Source: Bdellovibrionales bacterium (GTDB taxonomy: Bacteria > Bdellovibrionota > Bdellovibrionia > Bdellovibrionales > UBA1609). From it: a stretch of 64,000 bases of DNA. Every line of letters starts with the position of its first letter. Position 1 is the stretch's first letter. A model generated the notes under the pieces. That model ran no database searches and was not told where the DNA came from. It saw only the letters and a list, made by a program, of their open reading frames with translations. The stretch lies in contig CBDHDF010000010.1 of assembly GCA_965261545.1 (NCBI GenBank), positions 192,001 through 256,000 of the forward strand. The letters are read 5' to 3'. A program made the translations under genes and the position numbers. Below are positions 6,041-55,621 of the stretch, in pieces.

Positions 6041-6188
6041 AGGTAGGGTGAGCCCATCTTGTCAGATTACCCTAAATGGCCTGGTTTAACCCGCCCATCA
6101 GGGATAGATTGAACTCGATTCGCTTTGAGTGGTTCACCTTTTGAAACCTCCAGCTTTGCTGGAGGGGCATTCACTAATGGAGGCTTAT

Positions 6189-7486: not shown

Positions 7487-7508
7487 TATATCTCGGACAA
7501 AAGAGGGA

Positions 7509-8789
7509 TTATTTTAATAATTCTTTAGAAATTTTAAAAACAAGTTCAGCATTAACAGCATTACCAAGTGCTTTATAAGATGCGGTTGGTGTTCCAGGTA
7601 GATATTTTAAATTCTCCATACTTTGTAAGCGACTGCATTCACGTGGTGTCATATATCTTTCTTCCCAAGAAATAATAGGAACCTGAGTAGTTGTCATGGC
7701 AACTAAAGAAGGGGCTGTAATAGGCCTTTTTATACGAACCCCAGACGCTCGAAATTGAATAATATAATTTTTGACATCTCTTTCTTCGCCTTTGCAGTTC
7801 CATTCAAACTTTTGAAGGCTTTGGGGATATTTTTTTATTTTTGAGATCCATGGATGAATCCACTTCTTATTTCTTGAATAATATTCTCTGTTCTTATAAA
7901 TAAATTTCTGCTTCCATGGTGGAAATATGTTGTTCACTCCTCGAGCATAAGATGGTATATGTTTTAGTATGTCATGACGGTAGTAATAGCTATTGAGCTT
8001 ATGTCCAAAGGCTCCTTTACAACTCTTGAGTTCCTTCAAAGGAGCTTCATAGAGGGAATCATACCCTTCATATGGATAAGTAGCACCAAACTCCATTGTC
8101 CATATCGGAAATGAGGGGAGTTCCTCATCTTTTGGAGATAAGCTTAGAAATTCCTGCCAGACACTTAAGCACTCTTTGGTTTGGTGATTTAATGGTTGGG
8201 CATTTGGAGGGTTCTTATCTAAAATTGAAATAATATTCGGCTTCTGGATTTTAGATTCATTTGGCCAGAAAAAATGCTTTAAACCATATTGACTTCCCAC
8301 AATAAAAAGCCTTTCTCTTATTTGTGGTATATTAAATTTATGGGGAGACAAAATTTTGGTATCAACACTATACCCCTCCTTCTCAAGTTGTTTTTTCATG
8401 AGTAACCATGTTTTTCCGCCGTTATGCTTTTCTAGATTTGCAACATTTTCCATAATAAAAAAATTTGGTCTATGATACTTAATTATGCGTAAAACATGTT
8501 TTGAGAATAGGTCCCCCCATAACCTGCATTTAGTTCCAAGCTGTTCTCCTGCCTTTGAAAAGGGCTGACACGGAAATCCCGCACACAAAATATCATGAGG
8601 TGGAATATTGTTAGCATGAATCGAACGAATATCTCCACCTGGTCTTAAACCAAAATTCCTCTCATAAATTTCGACAAGCTCCTCATTTACTTCGCTTGAA
8701 AAAACACATTTATGGCCTAACTTTTTTAAGGCTAAGTGGAACCCCCCTAAACCAGAAAATAAATCAATAAATCTCAAAGATTTTGACAT
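7509..8789 (-). CDS. DNA (cytosine-5)-methyltransferase
   Basis: Motifs I FSGLGG, IV GFPCQPFS, VI MENV, VIII PQIRER, IX RECSRLQ and X LGNAV. Confidence 0.95.
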   Translation of the reverse strand: MSKSLRFIDLFSGLGGFHLALKKLGHKCVFSSEVNEELVEIYERNFGLRPGGDIRSIHANNIPPHDILCAGFPCQPFSKAGEQLGTKCRLWGDLFSKHVLRIIKYHRPNFFIMENVANLEKHNGGKTWLLMKKQLEKEGYSVDTKILSPHKFNIPQIRERLFIVGSQYGLKHFFWPNESKIQKPNIISILDKNPPNAQPLNHQTKECLSVWQEFLSLSPKDEELPSFPIWTMEFGATYPYEGYDSLYEAPLKELKSCKGAFGHKLNSYYYRHDILKHIPSYARGVNNIFPPWKQKFIYKNREYYSRNKKWIHPWISKIKKYPQSLQKFEWNCKGEERDVKNYIIQFRASGVRIKRPITAPSLVAMTTTQVPIISWEERYMTPRECSRLQSMENLKYLPGTPTASYKALGNAVNAELVFKISKELLK

Positions 8790-10963: not shown

Positions 10964-10979
10964 ATTATATACCTCTTAC

Positions 10980-12542
10980 TTAATTGGATATTGCTTTTAT
11001 GATTTCATTAAAGTTCTTTCTAATCGTTCCGGCGTACTTTACACCACTACTACGAGCTATAACTTCAGCCAAACCAAGGGCTGCTGCTACTCTTAATAGA
11101 GACTCAATTCCTGTGCCGTCAGTCCCAGAAAATCTTTCAGTAAATGGGTGAATCAACGATAAGCGTAAGCTTGTTTTTTTGGCATCCTTCTTTTTTTCAA
11201 TATTTATAGGAAAAGGAATATCACTGACCTCCACCCAGTTACCTACTGATGGATCTGTAGATAACTGAATTAAAATTTGCCACTGTTGCTCCCTATATTC
11301 TAGTTCTATTGATTTATATGAAACAAGACTCTTTTTAGAGAGGTTTTCTGGCAAGGGGCGAGCATCCGTCTTTTTATCAATTCGCAACAGAACCGGAGGG
11401 ACCCCCTCTTCTATAGATTTAGCAGTATTCTCAGTAGCTTTTTCTATTTCTTTTTTTATTTTTTCTGGATTAAGTTTCGATCTATAGCCTTTTGCTTGTT
11501 GTATTAAAGGTAGAGTCTCTTCCATTAACTCTTCTTTTAGTAAGTCTAAAAATATCTCGCTATTTTCATCCCACTCAAATCCATCTTTTGTATGGCTAAC
11601 ATTAAAGCCATCCAAAAAAATTTCACCAAAAATTCTCTGATACTCAAAACTATTTGGTTTTCCAAATAGTTTTTCTGGGCGAAATCCCTCGTCTCCACTT
11701 CCCTGAATAAGTCTATTTCTTCTGAATAATGCCAGACCAGATTTTGAAGTATTCGCTCTTTCTCTTATTGCGATGAATCCAGATGCTCTTAAGTTTTCTC
11801 CGAAGTCAAAGTCAATATTTTTTTTCCATAATTTGTCTTCACCACTAGTATCTTTATAGTATGGAGCAAACAAAATATTTGGTTCAGTATAATCTATGAA
11901 TTCATTATTGAAAATTAAATCAAGTTCGCCTTCGCGTATAAAGAAGCGATAAATATCAGAAAGATGCTCCTTGATTTTTCCTAAGGTTCGTCCTTTCGGA
12001 GTTTTGTATAAATTGGATAGTGTAACTTCAGTAAAGTGATATTTCTTTTCTGTTTGGTTTGATTTTATTTCCAACTCTTCCTGACGATCCTGAACAATTC
12101 TATCAATATCAAAAAATACTTCCCTTTCTAATTCCTCCCCCAATGCAGTTGTCCTTACTTTCCAGTTAGGGGAAAACCAACAAGCAGCACTTTTCATTCC
12201 CATGCCAAATTCAGAAAGCCCAGTCCTATCTGGTGGAACTTCAGCCGCTCGGAAGGCTCTGTGGTAATCTTCTTCATGGATTCCTGCTGCATTATCTCTT
12301 ATAAGAATAATTCCTTCGTCGTTAGGGTCGATTTCAATTTGAACTCTCAATTTGTATTTTTTGTTTTCAGATGCTAATTCGCTTTTATATTTCTTATAGC
12401 TTTCTATGGCATTATCAATAAATTCTGCCAATGCAAACCAAGGCTTATAATTTATATGACGTAATACCGAAAGAATATTTACCCCTGGTCGTATATTAAC
12501 CCGACGAGAGTCATTCATGCTGATTCCCCAATCCCTTATCAT
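10980..12542 (-). CDS. MORC/MutL-like GHKL ATPase (HATPase_c_3)
   Basis: ALAEFIDNA, IRDNAAGI and SEFGMGMKSA GHKL motifs. First gene of the Z1-methylase operon. Confidence 0.88.
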   Translation of the reverse strand: MIRDWGISMNDSRRVNIRPGVNILSVLRHINYKPWFALAEFIDNAIESYKKYKSELASENKKYKLRVQIEIDPNDEGIILIRDNAAGIHEEDYHRAFRAAEVPPDRTGLSEFGMGMKSAACWFSPNWKVRTTALGEELEREVFFDIDRIVQDRQEELEIKSNQTEKKYHFTEVTLSNLYKTPKGRTLGKIKEHLSDIYRFFIREGELDLIFNNEFIDYTEPNILFAPYYKDTSGEDKLWKKNIDFDFGENLRASGFIAIRERANTSKSGLALFRRNRLIQGSGDEGFRPEKLFGKPNSFEYQRIFGEIFLDGFNVSHTKDGFEWDENSEIFLDLLKEELMEETLPLIQQAKGYRSKLNPEKIKKEIEKATENTAKSIEEGVPPVLLRIDKKTDARPLPENLSKKSLVSYKSIELEYREQQWQILIQLSTDPSVGNWVEVSDIPFPINIEKKKDAKKTSLRLSLIHPFTERFSGTDGTGIESLLRVAAALGLAEVIARSSGVKYAGTIRKNFNEIIKAISN

Positions 12543-40464: not shown

Positions 40465-41217
40465 ATGATTGCCATGTTTACCATGTTGGAGGCCAAAGTG
40501 TCTATAAAATTGAATGTAAGACTGAATGAAAGGCTCAAGGTATGTCCCCCTAAAACCCTTTTGAGTAAGATGGGGGTAGGGGTATGTAAAAGGCCCAGCC
40601 TCTTTGTGAACAAAAGGTTCATTGTTATGGTGGCAAAAGGTGTCATGGTTTTTTTATCTTTCATGACCATGGGTTGTGCGACAAACTTAAAGTATCAGCA
40701 GATGACAAATTCACAGTATCGTTGGGCGACAATGGGTATCGCAGCCCCTATCGGTGCTGGCGTTGGAGCTTTATCTGCACCTGACAGAGAAAAAAAGGCA
40801 TATCATGCCTTGGCGTGGGCCAGTGCCTTTGTCGCCGCATCAGCTATCTTTGGAAACTACCACTACAGCGATGATAAGGAAATAGAAAAGCTCAGAAAGC
40901 AAGTCAAAGATTATGAGAATAGTTTGCGCCCCCACCTCCTCAATGAGGGCTCTGGCTATCTCAAGCATCCTTCTCTAGACAAAACAAAACCTGTGAAATG
41001 GAAAGTGTATAAGATCGACAAGTGGGTGCAGGAAAATGAAGCCACAAAATATCATCAAGACTTAATGCTCAAGTTGGAACCAATGGCCAAAGGCAAGGGG
41101 AAGAATCAGGATAAGAGTAAAGAAAATCTCAAGGAGCAAGAGGAGAAGAGGGGGGAAGAGCAGGAAAAACTGCAAGATAACAAAGGCTCCCAGAGAGCAA
41201 AGGAGAGGCCCAGGTGA
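40465..41217 (+). CDS. Putative lipoprotein with a glycine-zipper-like segment
   Basis: Lipobox-like TMGC and GIAAPIGAGVGA. The true start is probably downstream, near 40628. Confidence 0.55.
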   Translation: MIAMFTMLEAKVSIKLNVRLNERLKVCPPKTLLSKMGVGVCKRPSLFVNKRFIVMVAKGVMVFLSFMTMGCATNLKYQQMTNSQYRWATMGIAAPIGAGVGALSAPDREKKAYHALAWASAFVAASAIFGNYHYSDDKEIEKLRKQVKDYENSLRPHLLNEGSGYLKHPSLDKTKPVKWKVYKIDKWVQENEATKYHQDLMLKLEPMAKGKGKNQDKSKENLKEQEEKRGEEQEKLQDNKGSQRAKERPR

Positions 41218-42356
41218 TTAAAAATATTCTCTCTAAATCAGCCCTTATGATCTTATTGTTATGGTCTTCTCTCACCACCTACTTTTGGTTGGGTGGCATC
41301 AGTATTTCTGACATCAGAAGCCACCTCACCCTCTCTCCTAGAAAGAATCAGCCCATAAATATTGAACGTGACTACTTATTCATCACAAAATTTCTTAATG
41401 AGTACTATACCATAAATACAATGGGCTCTCCTAGAAATAAGGAGCAAAAGATGGAGTCTGTCAAAAAAATGGTTTCAAAGGGCAAGCAGGAGCGGATTAT
41501 AAAGAAATATAGGAGAACTCTTGATTATTTCTTCTCTCAGAAAGGAGCCCAAAAATTCTCAATTCAAAAGATTGTGAGAGATCAGGAAAAAGGTATGTAT
41601 AGAGCCTATTTATCTGTGTATCAGAGCTTTCAGAACAAGAAACAATATCTTGTCAAGGTAGATTTAAAGGTACACTCTCTTCGTAAAGTGAATGTCCTCA
41701 ATAAAGACTCTAGCCATTTCTTACAGAATACTCAGATTATGCACTTTGATGAGGTCATATTGGATATACCTCCCACTGAGCTATCAAATAAAGAGGTTTA
41801 TCTCCACCCCAAAACCACTTCTCAGGTCAGGCTTCCATGTCCTGTCAAGGCGATGTTTCGCCCCTCCCTGCCTAGTCCCTCGAAGGTTTCGTCATCACCT
41901 GCATCACCCTCTAGCTCTTCACAGGACTCTAGTTCTTCGACTTCTTCACAGGGGGCTCCCTCTTCTTCAGCCTCCTCTCATGTTACAAAAAATGTGTCCT
42001 CCATACCTGTAGGTGATGGCATAGATATACAATTAAGTTCAGATTTACGACATATCAAATTCTATTCAGAAAATAGTGATGTTATGGCTGAGGTCGGTCG
42101 CACTCATTTTGAAGTCAAATGTAAAAAGAGGGCCTTTAAACTCAACCTCATGCATAACAAGAATCTATTGACTGTTTATCAGTCTCTTTCACTCTCAGAC
42201 GGCATAGTAAAAGCAAGAAAGAGAAAGAAGCCCACAGCCAGTGATCGCTTTGAGAAAAATGTAGAAAAGCAACTAGGACTTGTAATAACTGATTGGAAGT
42301 GGAGCCATGGGAGTAGGAAGGCAAAGGGTGAAAAGAAGGAGAGGGGGCCTAAATGA
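41214..42356 (+). CDS. Membrane-anchored hypothetical protein, possibly a VirB8/TraK-like T4SS accessory
   Basis: N-terminal TM, FITKFLNEYYT helix, Ser-rich linker; overlaps the upstream gene by GTGA. Confidence 0.45.
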   Translation: MIKNILSKSALMILLLWSSLTTYFWLGGISISDIRSHLTLSPRKNQPINIERDYLFITKFLNEYYTINTMGSPRNKEQKMESVKKMVSKGKQERIIKKYRRTLDYFFSQKGAQKFSIQKIVRDQEKGMYRAYLSVYQSFQNKKQYLVKVDLKVHSLRKVNVLNKDSSHFLQNTQIMHFDEVILDIPPTELSNKEVYLHPKTTSQVRLPCPVKAMFRPSLPSPSKVSSSPASPSSSSQDSSSSTSSQGAPSSSASSHVTKNVSSIPVGDGIDIQLSSDLRHIKFYSENSDVMAEVGRTHFEVKCKKRAFKLNLMHNKNLLTVYQSLSLSDGIVKARKRKKPTASDRFEKNVEKQLGLVITDWKWSHGSRKAKGEKKERGPK

Positions 42357-42513: not shown

Positions 42514-43548
42514 TTATTCTTGATTAACAACACTTTGACATTTAGAGTCCCTTTTAGGGCAGCGACCTCCTGAATGTAAACAAGACTTCACACTTTGATA
42601 GGCCGTAAAGTTCTTTGTTCTATGATAGCTAGAGCTTGAATCTTTTGAATGACATATCCCTGATCTGCTTTTTTTAACATTTGGTTCATCTGTTGGATTG
42701 ACAGTTGGTCGGTTTGCTGGGGTTCTTTGAGAAGAAACTTTCTTTTTTTCCGAAGAAGCCTGTTTGCACTTGGAATCTCTTTTTGGGCATCGTCCACCTG
42801 CACTCAAACAGGATTGAATGTTCGGGAAAGGTTGGTAATTCTTGGTCTTGGAGTAGTAAGGACTGGATTTCCTCATGTGGCAGATATTTGACCTGCTCTT
42901 TTTAACCACAGGACTCTCATTTATAGCGTCTACTGACGCAGCAATTTTTTGTGATACATCTTGTGAACTATCTTGAGTGTTGAAAAAGACCATTTGAAAG
43001 GATGGACACTTGGAAATAATTTTTTCTAAAGCCACCAATTCTTCTGAATCAACTGTCAAGTTGTAGTCTTTTTTAACCTCAACAATTTTATTCGCAAACC
43101 AACATTTATTTTTTTCAGGTATCCAACCAGAAGCATCATGGCCTGATTTCTCTCTCTGATTAATGCCTGGTGAAGCTAATGTAAGGTTTTTAATATCCGA
43201 AGCAAATCGTATTTTTGTTTTTTTATTAGCAGCACAAAGACCACTATCATGAGCTTCGGATAATGAAACGATATGCTCTATATCTGTCTCTTTTATTGAT
43301 TTAAAATATTTGCCTAAATAGGGGGAGTAAATTTTATCGCCCAAGGATTCAACAATTTTATTTTCTAAAGAAGGTGAATAGTTGTAGTCCTTTGAGCGAT
43401 TATAAGGAGAGCACCGCCTCTCCTCTGATATTTTAAGGCCACGCCAATTATTGTCTTTAGATAAAGCAGTGGTTGTGAGGGTCAAAAGAAGGATAAAAAA
43501 GAAAACTTTAAAAAAGTTATAAGAATTATACTCAAAAATACGAATCAT
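42514..43548 (-). CDS. Secreted HNH (DUF1524-like) nuclease with two C-terminal Cys-rich repeats
   Basis: Signal peptide, DIEHIVSLSEAHDSG, NLTLA...NQREKS..DASGWIP, and two copies of KKSRS.ICH...CL..GGRCPKRDSKC. Confidence 0.8.
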   Translation of the reverse strand: MIRIFEYNSYNFFKVFFFILLLTLTTTALSKDNNWRGLKISEERRCSPYNRSKDYNYSPSLENKIVESLGDKIYSPYLGKYFKSIKETDIEHIVSLSEAHDSGLCAANKKTKIRFASDIKNLTLASPGINQREKSGHDASGWIPEKNKCWFANKIVEVKKDYNLTVDSEELVALEKIISKCPSFQMVFFNTQDSSQDVSQKIAASVDAINESPVVKKSRSNICHMRKSSPYYSKTKNYQPFPNIQSCLSAGGRCPKRDSKCKQASSEKKKVSSQRTPANRPTVNPTDEPNVKKSRSGICHSKDSSSSYHRTKNFTAYQSVKSCLHSGGRCPKRDSKCQSVVNQE

Positions 43549-44154
43549 TTTCTCTCCAATGTTAGTTTAATGTGTATTTGTCGGCAATTGAATTCATATT
43601 CTAAATACTAAAATATTGCATAATCGTCCTTTTAAATAAATGGGTCAATCTTTGCTAAGAAGTATCAATTCATTAAAATAGCTTAATAAAAATGTATTTT
43701 TCAAAAAAGATGAACCATTGGGTTTTAACAAAATATAATAATTTCTTACTTGTCATTATGTTTGCAAAATTCGATCGTAACTTTATCCACCCCCCACCTT
43801 AAGTACTGTGAGATAGGGCCAGCAGACATAGACTTAGGAATCAAAGCTGGATTCCAAGACTTAATTCTTGGTTCTAGCTTCGCCAGGTTAGATACCATAA
43901 ATTCCTTGCAAAGAAAGAATATTTTCAAAATGAGTCATGATTGGAACATCAATGTAAGTTAAAGAGACCTCTATGTATCATTATAAAAAATTTTATCACT
44001 GAAACACTCAAGATTTTAGTCCAGTAGGACGAAGAGTAGAAGAATATATAAGGTGCTTTCTTAAAAATATCATTCAGTCTTTTTGATAACCTTAAAGTTA
44101 AGAGGCTCGCAGTTGATTTACTTTGTAAGCTGATAAATTCTTGGAGGGTCTTTA

Positions 44155-47106
44155 GTGAGACTTCTATTCATATTTACGTTTCCAATTTATATCTTTCTTT
44201 TTTTCATAGAAATAGAAGTATCTGTAGCCAAGAACCAAGAACCAAGATATAAAAATATTTATAAAATTACTCCTGAGCAAGATTATATAGAAAATTACTT
44301 AAAATCTAATATTCTCATTAGGAACAAAGAAAATACGGGCAGTGGATTTTTTATATCTAAAAGCCTCATAGCTACAAATTACCATGTTGTTAAGGGTTCA
44401 GAAAAAAATATAATTATGTTTGAAAAACAAGATGGAAAGAAGGGGATTGCCCACATTGTTTTCTTTGATGAGAAAAATGATTTAGCTATACTTAAATCTT
44501 GGTCTAACGATGGTGTTCCTCTCAAACTAGGAAACTCATCAACAATAAAATTAACAGATGAAGTTTTAATCATTGGTTCCCCACAAGGACTTCAAGGAAC
44601 TGTGTCTACAGGAATCATCTCTGCAAAAAGAAAAAAAATTCTCGGATTTGATGAGCTTATTCAAACATCAGCTCCCATATCTTTGGGAAGCAGTGGATCC
44701 CCTGTTATATCAAAAAGAACAAAGAAAGTTATAGGGATTGCAACAATAATTCACAAAGAAGGTCAGAATTTAAATTTCTTTTTGCCTATAACTAAATTAA
44801 AAATACTCATCAAGAAAAACATAAATAAAATAAATAAGATGAAAAAAAGCATTATTAGCAAACTATTTAAGAATTCAAAAAATGGATCTAAGTCAGATCA
44901 ATTCTTGCTAGGAACTATGTATTTTTATGGAATACATTTTGACAAAAATTATAGGAAAAGTAAATACTGGTTCTTAAAAAGTGGCTTTAAGTCTTCTTAC
45001 CCATATTTAGGCGCAATATATTATCAGAGGGGACACAGAACTAAAATCAATTATGATAAAGCAAAGAAATATCTATTGAATAGCACTGAAAATCCAGACT
45101 CTTTGAGTATACTAGGCATGATGCATCTTGAAGGCAAGGGATTCTTGTCAAATCAATCAAAAGCATTAGAATACTTCCTAAAATCTTCAAGAAAAGGTCA
45201 TTTGATATCTCAAAAGATTGCAGGCTATATATGCTATAATCAAAAGAATTTCATAGAAGCATCTTTTTGGTTACTAATATCTTCTCTAAGAGACCCAAAC
45301 GATGACAAAATAAAAAATCATCTTGAAAAATCCATGATGAAACTAAGTTCCAATCAAATGTCATCTTTAAGAAGAAGAATAAATTTACTGATTAAAGGAA
45401 AGAATCCTATTGAGACGACTGATAAACCACAGAGATTGATATCCCAAGATACCTCTATAGATGAAGTAAAGATGATGAAGCTTTATGAAAAAGATTGCAA
45501 GGGGGGAGATATGGGAGGCTGTTCTAACCTTGGAGCTCTTGAAGAAAAAAAAGGAAATATGGCAAATGCTGCTGAATTGTATCAAAAAGCCTGCCTAGGG
45601 GGAGAGATGATAGGCTGTTCTAACCTTGGAGCTCTTGAAGAGAAAAAAGGAAATATGTCCAAGGCTGCTGAATTGTATCAAAAAGCCTGCCTGGGGGGAA
45701 ATATGAGTGGCTGTAATAACCTTGGGGGTCTTGAATATAAAAAAGGAAATGTGTCCAAGGCTGCTGAATTGTATCAAAAAGCCTGCCTAGGGGGACAAAT
45801 GAGAGGCTGTTCTAACCTTGGGCTTCTTGAAGATAAAAAAGGAAATATGGCAAATGCTGCTGAATGGTTTCAAAAAGCCTGCCTAGGGGGAAACATGATA
45901 GGCTGTTTTAACCTTGGGATTCTTGAAAAGAAAAAAGGAAATATGCCCAAGGCTGCTGAATGGTATCAAAAAGCCTGCAAGGGGGGAGATATGATAGGCT
46001 GTTCTAACCTTGGGCTTCTTGAATATAAAAAAGGAAATATGTCCAAGGCTGCTGAATGGTATCAAAAAGCCTGCCAGGGAGGATACATGGGAAGCTGTCA
46101 TAGCCTTGGGGTTCTTGAAGAGGACAGAGGAAATATGTTCAAGGCTGCTGAATGGTATCAAAAAGCCTGCAAGGGGGGATACATGGGGGGCTGTTCTAAC
46201 CTTGGGTTTCTTGAAAAGAAAAAAGGAAATATGCCCAAGGCTGCTGAATTGTATCAAAAAGCCTGCCTAGGAGGAGAGATGATGGGCTGTAATAACCTTG
46301 GATTTCTTGAAGAGAAAAAAGGGAATATGGCAAATGCTGCTGAATTGTATCAAAAAGCCTGCCTAGGGGGAGAAATGAGAGGCTGTTCTAACCTTGGGCT
46401 TCTTGAAAAGAAAAAAGGAAATATGTCCAAGGCTGCTGAATTGTATCAAAAAGCCTGCCTAGGGGGAAATATGAAAGGCTGTGTTAACCTTGGGCTTTTT
46501 GAAGAGAAAAAAAGAAATATGTCCAAGGCTGCTGAATTGTATCAAAAAGCCTGCCTAGGGGGATACATGGGGGGTTGCTCTAACCTTGGACTTCTTGAAT
46601 ATAAAAAAGGAAATATGTCCAAGGCTGCTGAATTGTATCAAAAAGCCTGCCTAGGGGGAGACATGATAGGCTGTGTTAACCTTGGGGGTCTTGAATATGA
46701 AAAAGGAAATATGGCAAATGCTGCTGAATTGTATCAAAAAGCCTGCCAGGGGGGAGAAATGATGGGCTGTTTTAACCTTGGGGTTCTTGAAGGTAAAAAA
46801 GGAAATATGTCCAAGGCTGCTGAATTGTATCAAAAAGCCTGCCTAGGGGGAGAAATGAGAGGCTGTAATAACCTTGGGGTTCTTGAAGAGAAAAAAGGAA
46901 ATATGTCCAAGGCTGCTGAATGGTATCAAAAAGCCTGCCTAGGGGGAAATATGAAAGGCTGTCATAACCTTGGGGTTCTTGAATATAAAAAAGGAAATGT
47001 GTCCAAGGCTGCTGAATTGTATCAAAAAGCCTGCCAAGGAGGAGTTCAACTGGGCTGTTCTTCGCTTAAAAAACTTAGACATCGTATGCCTGCTTCGAAT
47101 CAATAG
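44155..47106 (+). CDS. Secreted trypsin-like serine protease with Sel1-like and Cys-rich 32-aa repeats
   Basis: Triad motifs ATNYHVV, NDLAIL and GSSGSP; a canonical Sel1-like region; then a tandem repeat array. Confidence 0.9.
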   Translation: MRLLFIFTFPIYIFLFFIEIEVSVAKNQEPRYKNIYKITPEQDYIENYLKSNILIRNKENTGSGFFISKSLIATNYHVVKGSEKNIIMFEKQDGKKGIAHIVFFDEKNDLAILKSWSNDGVPLKLGNSSTIKLTDEVLIIGSPQGLQGTVSTGIISAKRKKILGFDELIQTSAPISLGSSGSPVISKRTKKVIGIATIIHKEGQNLNFFLPITKLKILIKKNINKINKMKKSIISKLFKNSKNGSKSDQFLLGTMYFYGIHFDKNYRKSKYWFLKSGFKSSYPYLGAIYYQRGHRTKINYDKAKKYLLNSTENPDSLSILGMMHLEGKGFLSNQSKALEYFLKSSRKGHLISQKIAGYICYNQKNFIEASFWLLISSLRDPNDDKIKNHLEKSMMKLSSNQMSSLRRRINLLIKGKNPIETTDKPQRLISQDTSIDEVKMMKLYEKDCKGGDMGGCSNLGALEEKKGNMANAAELYQKACLGGEMIGCSNLGALEEKKGNMSKAAELYQKACLGGNMSGCNNLGGLEYKKGNVSKAAELYQKACLGGQMRGCSNLGLLEDKKGNMANAAEWFQKACLGGNMIGCFNLGILEKKKGNMPKAAEWYQKACKGGDMIGCSNLGLLEYKKGNMSKAAEWYQKACQGGYMGSCHSLGVLEEDRGNMFKAAEWYQKACKGGYMGGCSNLGFLEKKKGNMPKAAELYQKACLGGEMMGCNNLGFLEEKKGNMANAAELYQKACLGGEMRGCSNLGLLEKKKGNMSKAAELYQKACLGGNMKGCVNLGLFEEKKRNMSKAAELYQKACLGGYMGGCSNLGLLEYKKGNMSKAAELYQKACLGGDMIGCVNLGGLEYEKGNMANAAELYQKACQGGEMMGCFNLGVLEGKKGNMSKAAELYQKACLGGEMRGCNNLGVLEEKKGNMSKAAEWYQKACLGGNMKGCHNLGVLEYKKGNVSKAAELYQKACQGGVQLGCSSLKKLRHRMPASNQ
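45478..47060 (+). repeat. 96-bp tandem repeat, about 16.5 copies, coding
   Basis: The unit core GCTGCTGAAT(T/G)GTATCAAAAAGCCTGC...AACCTTGG...AAAAAAGGAAATATG recurs every 96 nt. Confidence 0.97.
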
Positions 47107-47285: not shown

Positions 47286-50200
47286 GTGAGGATGGCAAAC
47301 AAGGAGATATTTTCATTGAAAACCATGTCGAAAACGATTCTAAAAAATATATTTGTCGCCTTGTTTGGCTCTTTGAACTGGACTCTTCCCAAGTGGTTAG
47401 GTGGGTTGATAGGGTGTGTGTGTCGTTTGATTGCTGGAATCAAAAGAGAACATTCAAGCCATAAAAAAAGATTTTATTGTATTCTGTCTTGTCTATTTCT
47501 TTTTGCCGCTGTGGGTGCGAGTGCTTATTTCGGGTATATCCATCAGCCTCAGTTGATGCGAGTCAGTGTTCAGGGGTCCACGATTGAACCCACTCCTCTT
47601 AAAGAGAGAGCAAAGCCTGTAGAATATAGCATTACTTTTGGGGGGTCTGTGGCTAAGCTCTCTGATGTGGGAAAAGTGGTGACAAGTGGTATTTCCATTG
47701 TGCCTGAGATTCAAGGTGTATGGAAATGGGCTTCGGATAGTGAGCTTGTTTTTAAAGTAACAAAGGATTGGCACACGGGGGCCACCCACCGTGTTCATCT
47801 TAAAAAAACGCTTTTTCCCAAGCATATTCACTTAGAAACCTATGAGCTGGAACTGTCCACTCCAAAACTTAAGATTGATATTAAAGAGGCTTCTTTTTAT
47901 CAGAACCCCAAGAAAATAAGAGATAAAAGGGTGGTGGTTGAGTTTCACTTTACCCATCCTATTGATACAGAATCCTTTGAAAAAAATGTGCAACTCATCC
48001 ATCTTTCTGGAGTGGGAAAGGGACTTGTCGCCCGAGGACATAAAGAAAAAATGGATTTTACAGTGACCTATGATGATTTTTTCGGAAAAGCTTTTTTACA
48101 TTCAAAGAATCTAACGATCAAAAATTATGAGAGTCGAGTGAAAGTCGAGGTGAAGGGAAAGATTTATTCCAAGTTACAAGGGCGTGGAGTTCTGGCAGAT
48201 ATTAAGAAAAGTGTCAAAGTGCCAGGAATTTTAACATTTTTTAAATTTCAAAGCTTTGATTTAGAATTTGTGAGGAACAGTGATTATGAGCTTGAGCAAG
48301 TTCTTATACTCAATAGCACAACAAGGGTCTCTTCAAAAGAATTGACAAAACACCTAGAGGTGTACTCACTTCCCAAGGATTGTCCTGCGAGTCTCAATAG
48401 AAAGAAAATCAAAGGATGCCGTTGGGATGTGGATTCTGTGTCCAACAAAGTCCTCGCTGTATATAAAAAGGTTGAGGTTGTCCCCATTCCCACAAAAAAA
48501 GATTTTTCTCAAACCCTTAGCTATAAATATAAAGAAAATCCGGGAATGTTTCTTTATATTCATATCAAAAAAGGTATCAAGTCTTTCGGGGGATATATGT
48601 TGCCGAGAGGATACTCCTTTGTGGCTCAAGTTCCACCCTTTCCAAAAGAGCTAAAGATTATGGCAGAGGGATCATTGTTGAGTCTGAATGGTGAAAGAAA
48701 GCTTTCGATTTTGTCTCGGAATATAAAGAATATAGGGTATCGAATTCAAAGGATATTGCCAGGTCAAATATCTAACTTTATCACACAAAGCTGGGGTGAT
48801 TTAAGTCACCCAAAATTTCGTTCAGAATTTAATTATCACTTGGGGATGGAAAATCAGTTTGGGATAGAAAATATATCTGAGACATTTAGCGGATCGAGAG
48901 CCCTTCCCCTCGTTGCGGATGGAAAAACACAGTACTCTCATTTTGATTTTGAAAAATTTCTAAATAATGTGAAGGGAAGACCCCGAGGACTTTTTCAATT
49001 GACAATTGAGGAGAAATTGAAAAAGCGTTCTTATCCAACGTTGAAAGGACCAACGGATCAGCGGTTTATCCTTGTCACAGATATAGGAATTATATCTAAA
49101 AAATCTGTAAGTGGAGGGTATGACCTATTTATTCAATCCATTTCAAGTGGACGGCCCATGGCAGGGGTCAAGGTTCAAGTGATGGGGAAAAACGGTCTTC
49201 CTGCCCTCACGAAAAGAAGCAATCATAGGGGGCATGTTTGGTTTTCAAGCCTCAAAAACTTTAAGCAAGAAAAGGAGCCTGTGGCTTTTGTTGTCACAAA
49301 AGGGGTCGATCTTTCTTTTTTACCGATTCGCACACATACTAAGGCTTTGAACTATTCTAGATTTGATGTGGGAGGTGTTCATGTTGGGAATCAAAGTCAT
49401 AGTCTAAAAAGCTATATGTTTTCAGACCGTGGTATTTATAGACCAGGTGAGAGGGTACGTATTGGTTATGTGATTAAAAACTCTGACAATTGGTCAGAGA
49501 GCCTTTCAGGTGTACGTCTCTCATTGAGTGTGGAAAACCCCAAGGGTCAATCCATTAAAAATGAGGAAGACATTGGACTCAATCAAGAAGGTCTTCAAAC
49601 CTATGAGTTTGAAACAAATGATAACTGGATCACAGGAGATTACACAGTTTCCTTGTTTGCAAAAATGAAGGAACAAGACCGCATTCAAATGGACTCCATC
49701 AACGTCAAAGTGGAGGAATTTGTACCCGATCGCTTAAAGATATCTGCAAATTTCTCAAAGCCCCTTAATAAAGGCTGGCTTCATCCAAAGGATTTAAAAG
49801 CCCATGTCCACTTAAAAAATCTCTTTGGCACACCTGCGCAAAATCGCCGCATTGTCGGTAAAATTTCTTTGATACCCCGTTATCCCTCCTTTAATGCTTA
49901 TAAAGATTGGAAGTTTTATAGCTCCGTGCGGTCTCAAGAGAGTTTCAATGAGGAGTTGGGAGAGCAAACAACAAACAAAGAAGGCAGTGCTGTGTTTAAC
50001 CTTGGTTTGGATAAGTTTGACTCCTCTTCCTATTTATTAAATTTTATGGTCGAAGGCTTTGAAGCGGAGGGAGGGCGATCTGTTCAGGCTTTTCATACCA
50101 CCCTTGTTTCTCCCCTAGAGTATTTGGTGGGTCACAAGGCACAGGGGGCTCTCAAATATATCCACCGAGGAGCCCAACTGGGAGTTGATTTTATAGCCGT

Positions 50201-53150
50201 TGATGCTCATTTGGAAAAGGTGCCTGTCCAGGAATTGACACTCAAGATTGTTCATTTCCAGTATGTGTCCACATTGGTAAAAAAACTCAATGGCACCTAT
50301 AAATATGAGTCCATTAAAAAAGAACGTGAAGTGAAAAGCTTACCCTTTCATATCAGTGCTTCTGGGACTTCAGTGCCACTAGACACTTCCCAAGCAGGTG
50401 ACTTTGCTCTCGTTGTCTTAAATGGCGATCATTTAGAGCTAAGCCGTGTTCCCTACAGTGTGGCTGGAAAATCCAATTTGGCCTCTCGTTTGGAAAGAAA
50501 TGCCGAACTCAAGGTCCAACTCAATAAAAATGACTTTGCTCCTGGGGACGAAATTGAAATCAATATAAGATCACCCTATGTTGGCTCTGGATTAATCGCT
50601 ATAGAAAGAGAGCGTATTTTTGCCTATAAATGGTTTCATGCAAGTACAAAAAATACTGTTCAAAGGATTCGCATCCCCATGGACTTTGAAGGCAATGGTT
50701 ATGTCAATGTGATGTTTGTGAGGTCTCTATCTTCTAACGAAATCTTTATGAGCCCTCTAAGTGTGGGGGTGGCTCCCTTTTCCATCCATAAATCAAGTCG
50801 TATCAACAAAATCTCCCTTCATGTACCCTCCCTTGTGCGCCCTGGAGATGACTTGGAGATAGATATTGCATCCACTCGCAAAGGTAAGGCCATTGTTTTT
50901 GCTGTTGATGAGGGAATTCTTCAATTTGCTGAGTACAAAAACCCAGACCCCCTCAGTCACTTTTATGAAAAGCAGGCATTGGAAGTTGAAACCAGGCAAA
51001 TTCTTCATCTCATTTTACCTGAATTCTCAAAGGTTGCCTTGAGACGCTCTTCAGAATCGGGAGGGGCTTCAGGGAGTCTTTTGGGCAAAAACCTCAACCC
51101 CTTTAAACGTCAACGAGACAAGTCCGTGGCCTACTGGTCGGGACTCATGGACATTGGACCAAAGTCGCAAAAATTAACATATTCTGTCCCTGACTATTTT
51201 TCAGGACAACTGAGGGTGATTGCTGTGGCTGTATCTCCAGACACGATGGGTGTTTCTGTAGAAAAGACCTTGGTCAAAGGGCCTTTTGTGATCTCTCCAA
51301 ACACACCCACTTTTGTGGCACCAAAAGATGATTTGACCGTTTCTGTTGGTATTTCCAACAACGTGCAAGGTTCGGGTGAAAATGCTGAGGTGGAAGTTCA
51401 TTTAAAGACTTCAGAGAATATTAAAATCAAGGGATCGCCTTCTGTGTCACTAAAAATCAATGAGGGAGACGAAGCCTCAGCAACTTTTGATATTGTCGCC
51501 CAAGAACCTTTAGGCCATGGGGAACTTGTATTTACAGCTCGTTATAAAGATCAATCCAGCCAGCGAAGATCAACCTTAAGTGTGCGACCAGCCACTCCCC
51601 TTATTATATCCGTCCATTCAGGTTATTTAGATGCCAATAAAAGCATCAAGGTGGCAACTCCAAGAAGAGCCTATAAAGAGTTTCAATCCAATGAAGTCTC
51701 CGTTTCTAAAGTACCATTGGGACTTACAAAATCATTTGTAAATTATCTTCAGAAATATCCATATGATTGCACAGAGCAAATCATCAGTCAGGGGTTTCCC
51801 TCTCTTGTCTTTGGCAACTATGAGGAGTGGGGAAAAACAAAGAGCGAAATTGCCACACAGGTGCAAGATATCACTGAAATACTCTCAAATCGTCAACGAC
51901 CTGATGGGAGTTTTACTAAATGGCCAGGTCCCTATGAGGAAGATGCTTTTCATACAGCTTATGCGGTTCACTATTTAACTGAAGCAAGGGACAGGGGCTA
52001 TGAAATTCCAAAGCCTCTTATGAAACATGCTTTGTCTTACCTTGAAGATTTTTCTAAACAGGAGACAAAAGACTTATCCATGGCGAGGATTCAGTCTTAT
52101 GGAGCTTACCTTCTGGCTAGAAATGAGTTTGTTGTCACCCAATCACTGACCTCGTTGGAGCAGTGGCTTGAGAAACACTATGCTGAATATTGGTTCAAGG
52201 ATATTGTGACTTTATATATGGCCAGTGCTTATAAGATCATGAAAGCCTCTATAAGAGCACAAAAGTTACTTATGCAATTTGATGATACCCACAAGACACC
52301 TTCTGAATATAAGTATGGTGTCTATGATGATACGATCAAGCGAGCCATGCATCTCTATTTGGTTTCTAAGCACTTTCCACATATGTTGAGTGCGTTTGAT
52401 GGTGAGAAGATCAATATCTTAGTAAAGCAGCTTTCTAGGGCCTACAATACAAACTCATCGAGTTTATCTATTTTGGCATTTGAGTCCTATGCCCAGGGGC
52501 TTACTCAAATAAAAAAGAAGGGATCATCGGAGGGCTTACCAGACACCTCAGGTATTTCAGTGGTGGAGTGGGTGGAGAAAGCAAAAAATGCATTGAAATT
52601 AGAAGGCTCTTTGTTTCCTAAGTCTGATTTTTCTTCCCACGCCAATGAAATCAGTATTTCCAACGACAGCCAACATGTGGCTTATTTCTCTGTGATTCAA
52701 GAGGGGTTTGATCGAAAATCTAGCCAAGTCCCACTTGTCAGTGGGATTGAAGTGTTTAAGGAGTTTATAGATAAAGAGGGAAATATAAAGGATATCGCCA
52801 AGGATAAAGAGGATAAGGTAAAACTTGGGGATGAATTGACCGTGAGACTACGAACTCGATCCATTGACTCCTTTTGGGTGTCTAATATCGCTATTGTAGA
52901 CCTTCTTCCGGGAGGATTCGAGGTGGTGTTGGATTCTATTGATAGAGATAGTGGAAAAGTAGAATATGTGGATGCAAGAGAGGATCGTGTTTTGATATTC
53001 ACTCACTTTACAAAAGAAATAAAAAGTTACACATACAAAATAAAGGCCATCAATAAGGGGCGCTATCAAGTGCCCCCCGTATTTGCTGAATCCATGTATG
53101 ATCGCCAACTGCAATCAAAAGGGATTGCCAAAGAAATTGTTGTTGAGTGA
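47286..53150 (+). CDS. Bacterial alpha-2-macroglobulin (YfhM-like)
   Basis: 1954 aa; VTDIG, FSDRGIYRPGE, VEEFVPDR, FAVDEGIL, thioester motif YPYDCTEQ, DLLPGGFE, REDRV, AESMY. Confidence 0.95.
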   Translation: MRMANKEIFSLKTMSKTILKNIFVALFGSLNWTLPKWLGGLIGCVCRLIAGIKREHSSHKKRFYCILSCLFLFAAVGASAYFGYIHQPQLMRVSVQGSTIEPTPLKERAKPVEYSITFGGSVAKLSDVGKVVTSGISIVPEIQGVWKWASDSELVFKVTKDWHTGATHRVHLKKTLFPKHIHLETYELELSTPKLKIDIKEASFYQNPKKIRDKRVVVEFHFTHPIDTESFEKNVQLIHLSGVGKGLVARGHKEKMDFTVTYDDFFGKAFLHSKNLTIKNYESRVKVEVKGKIYSKLQGRGVLADIKKSVKVPGILTFFKFQSFDLEFVRNSDYELEQVLILNSTTRVSSKELTKHLEVYSLPKDCPASLNRKKIKGCRWDVDSVSNKVLAVYKKVEVVPIPTKKDFSQTLSYKYKENPGMFLYIHIKKGIKSFGGYMLPRGYSFVAQVPPFPKELKIMAEGSLLSLNGERKLSILSRNIKNIGYRIQRILPGQISNFITQSWGDLSHPKFRSEFNYHLGMENQFGIENISETFSGSRALPLVADGKTQYSHFDFEKFLNNVKGRPRGLFQLTIEEKLKKRSYPTLKGPTDQRFILVTDIGIISKKSVSGGYDLFIQSISSGRPMAGVKVQVMGKNGLPALTKRSNHRGHVWFSSLKNFKQEKEPVAFVVTKGVDLSFLPIRTHTKALNYSRFDVGGVHVGNQSHSLKSYMFSDRGIYRPGERVRIGYVIKNSDNWSESLSGVRLSLSVENPKGQSIKNEEDIGLNQEGLQTYEFETNDNWITGDYTVSLFAKMKEQDRIQMDSINVKVEEFVPDRLKISANFSKPLNKGWLHPKDLKAHVHLKNLFGTPAQNRRIVGKISLIPRYPSFNAYKDWKFYSSVRSQESFNEELGEQTTNKEGSAVFNLGLDKFDSSSYLLNFMVEGFEAEGGRSVQAFHTTLVSPLEYLVGHKAQGALKYIHRGAQLGVDFIAVDAHLEKVPVQELTLKIVHFQYVSTLVKKLNGTYKYESIKKEREVKSLPFHISASGTSVPLDTSQAGDFALVVLNGDHLELSRVPYSVAGKSNLASRLERNAELKVQLNKNDFAPGDEIEINIRSPYVGSGLIAIERERIFAYKWFHASTKNTVQRIRIPMDFEGNGYVNVMFVRSLSSNEIFMSPLSVGVAPFSIHKSSRINKISLHVPSLVRPGDDLEIDIASTRKGKAIVFAVDEGILQFAEYKNPDPLSHFYEKQALEVETRQILHLILPEFSKVALRRSSESGGASGSLLGKNLNPFKRQRDKSVAYWSGLMDIGPKSQKLTYSVPDYFSGQLRVIAVAVSPDTMGVSVEKTLVKGPFVISPNTPTFVAPKDDLTVSVGISNNVQGSGENAEVEVHLKTSENIKIKGSPSVSLKINEGDEASATFDIVAQEPLGHGELVFTARYKDQSSQRRSTLSVRPATPLIISVHSGYLDANKSIKVATPRRAYKEFQSNEVSVSKVPLGLTKSFVNYLQKYPYDCTEQIISQGFPSLVFGNYEEWGKTKSEIATQVQDITEILSNRQRPDGSFTKWPGPYEEDAFHTAYAVHYLTEARDRGYEIPKPLMKHALSYLEDFSKQETKDLSMARIQSYGAYLLARNEFVVTQSLTSLEQWLEKHYAEYWFKDIVTLYMASAYKIMKASIRAQKLLMQFDDTHKTPSEYKYGVYDDTIKRAMHLYLVSKHFPHMLSAFDGEKINILVKQLSRAYNTNSSSLSILAFESYAQGLTQIKKKGSSEGLPDTSGISVVEWVEKAKNALKLEGSLFPKSDFSSHANEISISNDSQHVAYFSVIQEGFDRKSSQVPLVSGIEVFKEFIDKEGNIKDIAKDKEDKVKLGDELTVRLRTRSIDSFWVSNIAIVDLLPGGFEVVLDSIDRDSGKVEYVDAREDRVLIFTHFTKEIKSYTYKIKAINKGRYQVPPVFAESMYDRQLQSKGIAKEIVVE

Positions 53151-53170
53151 TTTTATAGAGATAAGAGATA

Positions 53171-55621
53171 ATGATAAAGAAGGGAATTTTCATTTTAGTA
53201 TCCATTTTCATTGTTCACAAGATTGTTTTATGGATCCAACCTTTTGGCTCCCTTTTATCAAAAATCCCATTCTCACAGGAAGTGGTGGACAGAAACGGGA
53301 ACCTTTTGCGCCTTTCTTTGTCTGAAGACCAAATCTATCGTTTGAAAACAGATCTGACAGAGATATCCCCTCTGCTTCGTGAAACAACACTTCTTTATGA
53401 AGATCGCTATTTTTATTGGCATATGGGAGTCAATCCATTTTCTATGGTGAGGGCTGCATGGAGCACATTCGTATCAAAGAATAGGATGATGGGAGCCTCA
53501 ACGATTACAATGCAATTAAGTCGTTTGCTTTTTAAGATGGATTCTCGAGGACTTATTGGTAAAGTCCATCAGATGATGAGGGCTTTACAGATTGAGTTCT
53601 TGTATAGTAAGGATGATATTCTAGAGGCTTATTTGAATATAGCACCCTATGGGTTCAATATTGAAGGTGTCGGGGCTGCAAGCAGAATATATTTTGATAA
53701 ACACCCCCGACGACTTTCTCTCTTAGAGTCTCTTACCTTGTCTGTGATTCCTCAAAATCCCACGAAGAGAACCCGACATATTCAGATGCCTCCACTCAGT
53801 GTATCTAAGGAGGCTTATAACAAGCCACTGAAAAAAGCTCTCCATAGATTATTCAGTCAATGGGTGCTAAGGCATCCCAATCACTTTATAAAGAAAATAG
53901 ATTCCAACTTGAACCTGGATATGAGACACCCAAGAAGGCTTCCATTCTACGCTCCTCATCTGGTCACAGAAGTGATGGGAAAAAGGGCAGAAGATTTAAT
54001 CACAGAGAAGCGGTCCATAGTTCTGAGTTTGGATTTGCCCTTGCAATTGATGTTTGAAAAGGTTGCCAAGTCTTATATCCATGAAAGAAAAAGGCATGGA
54101 GTGAAGAATATGTCGGCTCTCCTGGTGGACACGCAGTCCATGGAAGTTCTCTCTTACATTGGCTCTGTGGATTTTTTTAATGAGGGTATCCATGGGCAGG
54201 TCAATGGAGTGCGAGCCAGAAGATCACCTGGCTCTGCTCTCAAGCCCTTTGTGTACGGGTTGGCTATGGAGCAGGGTATTATTCACCCTCTCAGCACTTT
54301 GAAGGATGCACGAACGTCGTTTGGTCTCTATACTCCCGACAATTTTGACAGCCGATTTTCTGGTCCACTTTCAGCAACACAAGCTCTTGTGCTTTCAAGA
54401 AATATTCCAGCCATCCGCTTAACTCGGCAATTATCTGTGCCGAAAGTGCATAAGCTTTTTCACTCATTAAATATACCGCTCCATCCAAACCCACAGCACT
54501 ACGGACTCTCCATTATTTTGGGCACCACGGGTGTGACGATGGAAGAGCTTGTGAAAAGCTATGCCCTATTGAATAACAAGGGGAGGTATCGGCCCATAAA
54601 GAAGCAAATGGACCCAGTGCCCATGCCCATCGGGGTCGGGGTGCCCATAGGTGACCATCTTTTTCGATTTACCGGGGAAATGAAACAAATGAAACGAAGA
54701 AAATCAAAAGAGCAAGAAAAACAGATTTTTTCCAAAGAGGTGGCTTTTTTAGTTTTAGATATGTTGACACAAAACCCTCACCCTCAAGGTAAACCAGGAG
54801 GAAGTACCTGGAAATTACATCCTCAAAGTGTGGCTTGGAAAACAGGCACATCCATGGGTTTTCGTGATGCTTGGGCTGTTGGTGTCTTTGATCATTATGT
54901 TCTTGCAACATGGGTGGGTCATTTTTCAGGTCATGGAAACCAAGCATTTGTTGGGAGAAAGGTGGCTGGCCCCTTGCTGTTTTCATTGATTGAGGCTCTG
55001 GCAAAGGTGAGGGAGGTGAACTTTTCTAAGCCCTCCCCCACTTCAGATTTAAATCTCACAAGTGTTGATTTTTGCCCCCTATCTGGCCGCCTTCCCCACA
55101 AAGATTGCCCACATAGGAAGAAGGGATGGTTCATACCAGGAGTAAGCCCCATACATCGCTGCAAGGTGCATAGAAGAATCGAAATAGACTTGGTTTCTGG
55201 GTACCAGGTTTGCTCAGGATTCAAAGGTCCCACTCAAACCAAAGTTTTTGAAAACTGGCCCACTGATATTCTCAAACTATTTCAACAAGCTGGATTGGGC
55301 AGAAAAACCCCACCCCCACGGCATCCGAAATGTCGTCAAGATATCTTTGGAGACATGGACCCAAAGATTCTTTCTCCAAAAGAAAGAATTGTCTATAATT
55401 TGAGAACATCTGGGTCTGATTCTAAGAAGATTCCCTTTCTGGCTATTGGCGATGGAAGTGTCAAAAATTTTTCTTGGTACGTCAACAATCAGTTTGTAGG
55501 ACAATCTCAAATGAATCATCCCCTCTTATGGATGGCAGCTTCTGGGCAACACACTGTGCGAGTTATAGATGACCATGGTCGATCCACAGAAGTTGCTCTC
55601 AATGTTCAATGGGTGGATTAA
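53171..55621 (+). CDS. pbpC: Penicillin-binding protein 1C
   Basis: Transglycosylase EDRYFYWH and GASTITMQ; transpeptidase SALK, SRN and KTG; C-terminal beta domain; adjacent to the alpha-2-macroglobulin gene. Confidence 0.95.
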   Translation: MIKKGIFILVSIFIVHKIVLWIQPFGSLLSKIPFSQEVVDRNGNLLRLSLSEDQIYRLKTDLTEISPLLRETTLLYEDRYFYWHMGVNPFSMVRAAWSTFVSKNRMMGASTITMQLSRLLFKMDSRGLIGKVHQMMRALQIEFLYSKDDILEAYLNIAPYGFNIEGVGAASRIYFDKHPRRLSLLESLTLSVIPQNPTKRTRHIQMPPLSVSKEAYNKPLKKALHRLFSQWVLRHPNHFIKKIDSNLNLDMRHPRRLPFYAPHLVTEVMGKRAEDLITEKRSIVLSLDLPLQLMFEKVAKSYIHERKRHGVKNMSALLVDTQSMEVLSYIGSVDFFNEGIHGQVNGVRARRSPGSALKPFVYGLAMEQGIIHPLSTLKDARTSFGLYTPDNFDSRFSGPLSATQALVLSRNIPAIRLTRQLSVPKVHKLFHSLNIPLHPNPQHYGLSIILGTTGVTMEELVKSYALLNNKGRYRPIKKQMDPVPMPIGVGVPIGDHLFRFTGEMKQMKRRKSKEQEKQIFSKEVAFLVLDMLTQNPHPQGKPGGSTWKLHPQSVAWKTGTSMGFRDAWAVGVFDHYVLATWVGHFSGHGNQAFVGRKVAGPLLFSLIEALAKVREVNFSKPSPTSDLNLTSVDFCPLSGRLPHKDCPHRKKGWFIPGVSPIHRCKVHRRIEIDLVSGYQVCSGFKGPTQTKVFENWPTDILKLFQQAGLGRKTPPPRHPKCRQDIFGDMDPKILSPKERIVYNLRTSGSDSKKIPFLAIGDGSVKNFSWYVNNQFVGQSQMNHPLLWMAASGQHTVRVIDDHGRSTEVALNVQWVD

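Follow-up and report, generated by a model that had tools for sequence, protein, structure and literature searches.

The protease gene and its domains

A 64,000-nucleotide stretch of DNA from a Bdellovibrionales bacterium (contig CBDHDF010000010.1, positions 192,001 to 256,000; the whole of it is called the window below) carries at 44155..47106, on the + strand, an open frame with a GTG start that encodes a protein of 983 amino acids. The protein is laid out as a signal peptide, a trypsin-like protease, Sel1 repeats with a cap, a linker, and an array of 32-residue repeats with paired cysteines. This array, its mode of evolution, and its possible role in directing the protease are the subject of our analysis. 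All elements of the gene lie on the + strand, including a Shine-Dalgarno-like GGAGG read from the sequence at 44143..44147, 7 nucleotides 5' of the start codon.

The first residues, up to about residue 25 (44155..44229), form a probable Sec signal peptide, judged by eye from a hydrophobic stretch with a small-x-small site at its end. Hydrophobic N termini are likewise found in three relatives (P0122, P0123, and P0125), and the protease is probably exported or secreted. The protease domain (44338..44739), recognized from Pfam, NCBIfam, alignment, and a structural model, is a trypsin domain of the HtrA/DegP type (S1C-like). Residues 62-195 match Pfam Trypsin_2 with an E value of 4e-25, the NCBIfam HtrA models match as well, every one of them far below its cut-off, and the predicted model resembles the protease domains of DegS and HtrA1, in part at low confidence. 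The sequence-only reading had described an intact trypsin triad; His77, Asp109, and Ser180 are indeed present and are invariant in the six proteins aligned. The domain and triad are thus those of HtrA, DegP, and DegS, but the Pfam scan of the protein found no PDZ domain, and Sel1 repeats stand in its place.

Behind the protease lie about three ordinary, diverged, cysteine-free Sel1 repeats (44896..45204), two of them matched by Sel1 at E values of at most 0.001 and the third recognized from the alignment and the model. The fold of this region matches those of SEL1L, c5321, and LpnE. The repeats are followed by capping helices (45247..45393), which the alignment of relatives identifies as similar to those ending the Sel1 proteins of these relatives and which appear to be the old C terminus. 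A linker (45394..45477) leads to the array; the closest relative, P0122, stops just past the equivalent stretch. The protein as a whole reaches a Pfam Sel1 score of 170.6 bits (cut-off, 30.7). Its best single Sel1 stretch corresponds to the ordinary repeats, and the units of the array score equally well on models of tetratricopeptide repeats (TPR). The same Pfam scan found no NACHT or NB-ARC domain. We considered an RxPAS-like motif at the C terminus as a scar of the fusion and rejected it, since it was seen 12 times when 12.3 were expected.

A uniform array with five variable positions

The array (45478..47061) was delimited by its motif positions, by TRF, by the structural model, and by its G+C content (GC). 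It has 17 C-x7-C motifs with all 16 spacings of exactly 32 residues, close to the count of about 16.5 units of 32 residues first made from the sequence. There is a first unit with a divergent start (45478), followed by 15 complete interior units (45574-47013) and, from 47014, half a unit. TRF reports a period of 96, 16.1 copies, and 0% indels, and neither a stop codon nor an indel occurs over 1.5 kb of array. Its GC (43%) is higher than that of the 5' part of the gene (30%). The interior units have a mean identity of 87% in DNA and of 77% in protein (range, 59-91%), and no two units are identical. Their scaffold had been described as almost identical even at synonymous sites, and this holds: 62 of the 96 base columns show no change among the 15 interior units, and a single third base is used in 7 of the 12 four-fold and 12 of the 13 two-fold degenerate scaffold codons. 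Scaffold positions 1, 4, and 5, though polar and exposed, use the same codon throughout.

Variation is dominated by positions 11, 13, 16, 20, and 23, with exactly the residue sets listed by the sequence-only reading; positions 2, 8, 29, and 30, which it had passed over, are moderately variable too. The combinations of the five residues are all distinct (15 of 15 units), whereas Asn17, in the midst of them, is kept in 14 of the 15 interior units. Many pairs of units differ by at least two bases in these codons (62/85, 51/91, 62/84, 24/87, and 56/82 pairs at the five positions, respectively), which had been read as multi-base codon changes. However, the 31 codon alleles found at these positions are joined by 27 single-base steps, so that the multi-base differences look accumulated rather than produced by single events. 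The third base of codons 16 and 20 is T in all 15 units. The array is basic overall, with 72 Lys and Arg against 51 Asp and Glu, and its variable residues include Tyr, Phe, His, and Asn.

The variable positions map to a predicted groove

In the structural model, each unit consists of a helix of 13 residues, a loop of 3, a second helix of 13, and a loop of 3 (assigned with DSSP), with a predicted local distance difference test score (pLDDT) of 81-92. The fold matches TPR and Sel1 superhelices, including those of OGT, SPY, c5321, and LceB (structures 6OK3, 4BWR, and 8SXQ among the matches); the ESM Atlas returned only generic TPR/Sel1 clusters. Positions 13-24 form the first helix of the unit, and on it positions 13, 16, 20, and 23 fall within 80 degrees of the helical wheel. 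Position 11 lies in the preceding loop. Hence, the proposal that the variable residues share one helix face is right for four of them and has to be amended for the fifth. An alignment with engineered consensus TPRs, in what we take to be the standard TPR numbering, places positions 11, 13, 16, 20, and 23 at TPR positions 34, 2, 5, 9, and 12, and Asn17 at position 6. Magliery and Regan described TPR positions 2, 5, 9, 12, 13, 33, and 34 as the most variable ones, on the concave face, and the Asn at position 6 as a contact to the backbone (PMC1261162). The first helix of the canonical Sel1 unit, which has a 13-7-13-3 geometry, also lines the concave face (PMC3851747). The mapping of the variable residues onto the predicted structure thus places 13, 16, 20, and 23 together on the first, concave-face helix, and the model supports their location on one face of a groove-lining helix.

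The cysteine pair spans the loop between repeats in 17 of 17 units. In the Hcp proteins, disulfides link one repeat to the next in this way (PMC3851747), and the pairs in the array are probably disulfide-bonded as well. This pairing and the 13-3-13-3 geometry identify the unit as an Hcp-type repeat whose intra-repeat loop is four residues shorter than the canonical one; one such short-loop repeat occurs in c5321 (PMC3851747). The resemblance to Hcp-type, disulfide-bridged Sel1 repeats had been noted from the C-x7-C pattern and is borne out by the fold matches and by sequence matches to 1OUV (E value, 2e-21) and 1KLX (E value, 5e-9).

Selection on the groove positions

The excess of amino-acid change at the variable positions, which the sequence-only reading had suspected, can be quantified. 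Among the non-synonymous events in a minimal count, 24 of 40 fall in the five codons (P = 6e-5 against random placement, with the top five codons picked in each draw), and the pairwise ratio of non-synonymous to synonymous differences (pN/pS) is 3.09 at these codons and 0.56 elsewhere. A second comparison used a set of sites fixed beforehand, namely, the seven variable TPR positions taken from PMC1261162. It gave 26 non-synonymous events over 16.4 sites against 10 synonymous events over 20.7 sites, i.e., a ratio of 3.3 (P = 6e-4), while the same ratio is 0.84 at the outer positions of helix 2 and 0.49 at the rest. Codons 16 and 20 together have 10 non-synonymous events and 0 synonymous ones, which speaks against a local mutation hotspot.

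These values bear on the possibility that the array is a young, nearly neutral expansion whose scaffold is purified and whose exposed positions simply drift. The genome has the properties that this scenario would need, as it is rich in mobile elements and prone to repeats, with many other in-frame arrays and 30 reverse-transcriptase matches; the five positions are tolerant across the family, and the array is dispensable in P0122. Yet drift predicts a ratio near 1 and not 3.3, the exposed positions 1, 4, and 5 should not then be invariant in their codons, and the 1.5 kb of repeats would not be expected to be free of stops and indels. We therefore disfavor neutral drift as the source of the variation and regard it as very unlikely. 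There is good support for selection on the array and for its binding of some partner. A different selective pressure, in which neighboring units diverge so as to avoid misfolding, was considered and rejected, since adjacent units are not significantly less alike at the five positions (0.157 against 0.183; P = 0.34).

Probable exchange between units

The units are mosaics. The pairs of informative sites that are incompatible with a tree number 160 of 220, when free shuffling would give 156 +/- 7, and those within the scaffold 24 of 49, when free shuffling would give 24.5 +/- 5. The best parsimony solution found takes 91 steps over a floor of 48. We also simulated clonal evolution under six settings with increasingly extreme rate variation and two-state sites; the observed scaffold incompatibility was reached in 0, 1, 0, 18, 21, and 96 of 200 runs. 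The earlier idea of an array diversified by recombination is therefore upheld in that the mosaics fit free shuffling, and weakened in that a clonal origin matches them in some simulations: the mosaic units are likely to have arisen by recombination between units. Stepwise local duplication was rejected as the process, since neighboring units resemble each other no more than distant ones do and identity even rises slightly with distance (r = +0.29). A search for paralogous donor arrays by blastn and tblastn in the 11 contigs found none.

Co-variation among the five positions was seen in 1 of 10 pairs, positions 11 and 13, which are six bases apart. The analysis of pairwise co-variation of the five positions thus detected no code in which one unit reads one residue, and the analogy with the codes of TALE and PPR proteins, drawn when the array was first described, goes beyond these data. 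The array is probably a tunable binding groove, with its specificity spread over several units.

Could the mosaics have a technical origin, as an artefact of assembly or polishing, or a special mutational one, such as a diversity-generating retroelement (DGR) acting on the array? Tandem arrays are hard to assemble, and our evidence on the assembly comes from contig-level comparisons with four sequencing runs of one sample. Codons 16 and 20 vary as NNT, and the genome has many reverse transcriptases (30 matches). Against an artefact, one contig of the run X1 reproduces 43600-45509 with 0 differences, and all other letters over the first unit in the run contigs are alleles of the assembled array. 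X1 also contains 0.85 of the words sampled from a stretch that is more than 40% array, and the difference counts agree with assembled units in 4 of the 5 contig intervals compared and disagree in one. Against a DGR, which we rejected, the genome has no template copy elsewhere, and the array has 20 invariant adenines, six of them at third codon positions; 9 of the 34 variable columns lack adenine. We consider this whole class of explanations highly improbable. A separate observation concerns 45480-45558, where a low-depth contig piece of X1 (depth, 2.35) departs from the first unit by 7 differences; none of the 15 assembled interior units gives this number (13 to 21). The piece may represent a variant unit, another strain, or an error in the assembly graph.

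Relatives and the origin of the array

P0122, the nearest relative, shares 64% identity with the array protein over 441 residues; it has no array and terminates shortly after the linker. P0123 (50% identical) has four cysteine units, three of them with an exact C-x7-C, whereas P0255, P0256, and P0257 (45-46% identical) have ankyrin repeats at the place of the array. P0125 has no tail; it stops where the ankyrin repeats of P0255 begin and may be truncated. A tree built from ten protease-Sel1 bodies places the array protein as sister to P0122 (98/98), with P0123 next (89/89, not firm), and groups the ankyrin forms with P0125 (99/99). Units of the unrelated proteins P0133 (0.74) and P0002 (0.67) resemble the scaffold of the array more closely than two units of P0123 do (0.54). 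This proximity, together with the contrast in GC between the array and the upstream part of the gene, suggests a separate gain or a replacement. Judging from these comparisons, the array would have been added behind a complete trypsin-Sel1 protein. Trypsin-Sel1 proteins were found in 6 of the 15 relative loci inspected. As a side observation, one locus (L019, in genome G008) encodes a trypsin domain with 44% identity to that of the array protein and, behind it, a homogenized array of canonical 36-residue Sel1 units (87% DNA identity over 13 units), in which the equivalents of positions 11, 13, 16, and 23 vary and that of position 20 hardly does.

We compared the array with those of other proteins, many of which are fusions to kinases or caspases by their Pfam labels. 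Among the 121 proteins examined, 110 have at least five interior cysteine units, and none of these 110 is as uniform as the present array (0.76; the runner-up has 0.71). Its internal identity of 0.77 also exceeds that of 31 other 32-residue arrays found among 253 proteins (0.20-0.72), and it is the longest uniform 32-residue array seen among the arrays compared. Across 24 other arrays whose internal identity is 55% or more, variability within positions 1-25 is highest at 20, 13, 16, 11, and 23, and the same five come on top in the seven other 32-residue arrays above this threshold. Variability at the five positions is therefore a family-wide property of the TPR/Sel1 groove and is not special to this gene.

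How would such an array be maintained? One answer is that it is adapted and not diversifying: conversion homogenizes the scaffold while the groove residues are held for one constant partner, which could be a surface or periplasmic protein of the cell itself or a single host protein. The data from within the array fit this explanation as well as they fit diversification. Groove residues are 19% identical within the protein and 16% identical to those of units from seven other proteins, so that their identity within the protein is at the level seen between proteins, as retained old differences would give; the scaffold is 87% identical within the protein and 59% against the same seven. In addition, the gene is single copy, and the other letters recovered from the one sample are all assembled alleles. 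On the other side, codons 16 and 20 end in T in every one of the 15 units and the alleles are linked by single steps, which fits a recent origin from one codon better than the retention of old alleles, and the type of tail and the number of units (0, 4, or 17 among the distant relatives) differ among relatives. We regard a single fixed partner as unlikely.

A possible targeting module for a secreted protease

We lean, by a modest degree, towards the interpretation that the array is an appended, recombination-shuffled peptide-binding groove that helps to target a secreted protease; the choice of substrates and the variation among strains are inferred. An exported HtrA-type serine protease without PDZ would have gained, behind its old C-terminal cap, a second module in the form of a Sel1/TPR superhelix whose 17 short units are stapled by disulfides. 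Exchange among the units, by recombination or gene conversion, would keep the scaffold uniform and reshuffle the alleles, while selection would favor new residues at the groove positions 11, 13, 16, 20, and 23. The near-invariant ladder of Asn17 could hold the backbone of an extended polypeptide and the variable residues could read its side chains, in the manner of OGT and Hop. In this way the array may capture outside proteins, from a host, a prey, or a competitor, and either raise their local concentration at the protease or switch the protease on.

Several points weigh against this interpretation. The four runs amount to one sample. The genome yielded a single such gene, in contrast to diversifying gene families, and P0122 shows that the array is dispensable for the ancestral function. 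Even in 85 old arrays of low identity, variability peaks at these same positions and at position 24 (in the order 13, 20, 16, 24, 23, and 11), so that the five are also simply the most tolerant ones. The event counts are minimal counts and not the output of a codon model, and recombination can bias them; the exchange between units is itself likely but unproven, given that clonal simulations sometimes match. The exposure of the groove and the disulfides are predictions from the model and from alignment, the half of the protease domain that holds Ser180 is modelled at a pLDDT below 50, and export is deduced from a signal peptide judged by eye. As for close alleles, the genome contig collection gave none (four distant loci only), the metagenome contigs gave none among the matches listed (at least two weak loci), and the protein collections gave none; plasmids gave generic HtrA matches only.

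The array might also serve as a tether or scaffold, binding a glycan, the peptidoglycan, or the cell surface and thereby placing the protease without choosing its substrates. Its basic character and the Tyr, Phe, His, and Asn in the groove would suit such a role, and a periplasmic TPR protein that binds polysaccharide is on record (PMC9384988). However, a regular polymer would favor identical units, while all 15 combinations differ, and the Asn ladder and the match of positions point to the binding of peptides. This makes a tether rather unlikely. A bolder version of peptide targeting would be a reprogrammable protease, in which the body takes interchangeable Cys-Sel1 or ankyrin tails, a five-residue code reads an extended peptide, and reshuffling in the population tracks the proteins of hosts or prey. 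We find this version quite improbable.

The evolutionary signature of the array is already known and would not surprise a specialist of repeat proteins. The interest lies elsewhere. The array is a clean natural library on a compact, probably disulfide-stapled Sel1/TPR unit of 32 residues, with a fixed scaffold, five varied positions, and an Asn ladder. Such a unit could be useful as a scaffold for binders and as a test case for a modular peptide code in TPR grooves. The gene also belongs to a family of exported bacterial proteases in which the tail is absent, of the Sel1 type, or of the ankyrin type, depending on the member. Since an inactive protease can trap its partner, what the repeat proteins of host-associated bacteria bind becomes testable.

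Comparison with known systems

HcpB and HcpC of Helicobacter (PF08238; PDB 1KLX and 1OUV) are the closest structural counterparts, with a Sel1 superhelix of the secreted type and C-x7-C across the inter-repeat loop. Their unit has 36 residues and a 7-residue intra-repeat loop, as far as described, in contrast to 32 residues and a 3-residue loop here, and they differ from the array protein in its near-identical units and its fusion to a protease. Positive selection on surface residues has been reported for secreted Sel1 proteins of H. pylori (PMC1941758). In evolutionary terms, the nearest precedent is given by the repeats with high internal conservation (HiC) of fungal NOD-like receptors (NLR) rather than by TAL effectors. 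In these TPR, ankyrin (ANK), and WD arrays the repeats are homogenized and a few positions of the concave face are under positive selection, which has been explained by concerted evolution (Dyrka et al. 2014, PMC4986451; het-d/het-e, PMC12222747). Unlike these receptors, the array protein has no NACHT or NB-ARC domain, is fused to a protease, and is probably exported and disulfide-bonded. Polymorphism in repeat number and a ligand have been described for the fungal HiC genes, whereas the array protein is known from the sequence of one sample. The HiC line, as published, is drawn at 85% identity over 100 residues; by simple unit identity the array has a mean of 77%, and its scaffold 87%.

TAL effectors and pentatricopeptide repeat (PPR) proteins are built of near-identical units with few specificity positions, are shuffled by recombination, and read nucleic acids with a code of one unit for one base. 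In contrast, the array protein has its variation spread over five positions, is probably exported and disulfide-bonded, and gave no sign of a code. Near-identical TPR-like repeats were reportedly also the subject of work by Marold et al. in 2015. OGT and SPINDLY, which are among the top fold matches of the array, join an enzyme to a long TPR superhelix with an Asn ladder, and the TPR domains of Hop are a related case; the ladder of OGT holds the peptide backbone while neighboring residues select substrates (bioRxiv 10.1101/2020.12.22.423982). OGT and SPINDLY differ from the array protein in being cytoplasmic glycosyltransferases with diverged 34-residue units and a specificity that is broad rather than diversifying. 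Finally, the trypsin-Sel1 proteins of Bdellovibrionales and the kinase or caspase fusions with Cys-Sel1 arrays each contain one of the two modules that the array protein joins. The literature searched, which included few subscription journals and no supplements, has no description of the 32-residue Cys-Sel1 unit or of trypsin-Sel1-ankyrin fusions. What is already known is the combination of homogenized repeats with selected concave positions; what is new is the short-loop, 32-residue Hcp-type unit, the most homogenized array among those compared, and a protease body with differing tails.

Genomic setting

The gene sits between genes of a conjugative element and a pair encoding an alpha-2-macroglobulin and PBP1C. 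The genes of the integrative conjugative element (12837-33326 on the - strand and 40465-42356 on the + strand of the window) encode an integrase, a relaxase, a TraC/VirB4-like protein, TrbI, a T2SSE ATPase, a coupling protein, and a weakly matched TraE. Located some 11 kb past the coupling protein, the protease gene may travel as cargo of this element; no direct repeat of note was found between the flanks of the conjugative genes that would mark its ends. Beside the integrase, at 6177-12542, a gene with a TIR domain and a cluster of C5 methylase, Z1, and HSP90-like ATPase genes are likely to form a defense island. The bacterial alpha-2-macroglobulin and PBP1C genes are directly downstream of the protease gene (47286-55621, + strand). 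A link between them and the protease was rejected: the bMG10 domain was found in 15 of 60 relatives, but the seven genomes whose trypsin or trypsin-Sel1 matches are nearest (G002, G008, G017, G018, G036, G043, and G054) all lacked it, so that the adjacency looks incidental.

On the other side, the divergent neighbor (42514-43548, - strand) encodes a nuclease of the GmrSD_C type, probably exported, with two Cys-rich repeats at its C terminus. An intergenic element of about 155 bp upstream of the protease gene (43738-43892) recurs three more times in the genome, the copies being 77-82% identical, and is also found in contigs. The genome is rich in in-frame repeat genes and reverse transcriptases; reduced Bdellovibrionota symbionts of sponges have been reported (PMC9944714), but this genome measures 4.3 Mb. 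In genome G000, 28 open frames have at least three 25-residue motifs of the DUF285 type (e.g., L029 and L032; Pfam DUF285 was found in both of the two tested), and several of them combine a fixed scaffold with few variable positions. The same pattern recurs in a protein of the cytoplasmic type, L030 (G000:C2:546533-550042), which has an FRG domain and about 23 similar TPRs with few highly variable positions. Two paralogues, L031 (G000:C9:7352-10252) and G000:C11:362006-364564, have a different 32-residue repeat that contains His and Trp; the one tested had no Pfam match, and this repeat is possibly an undescribed family.

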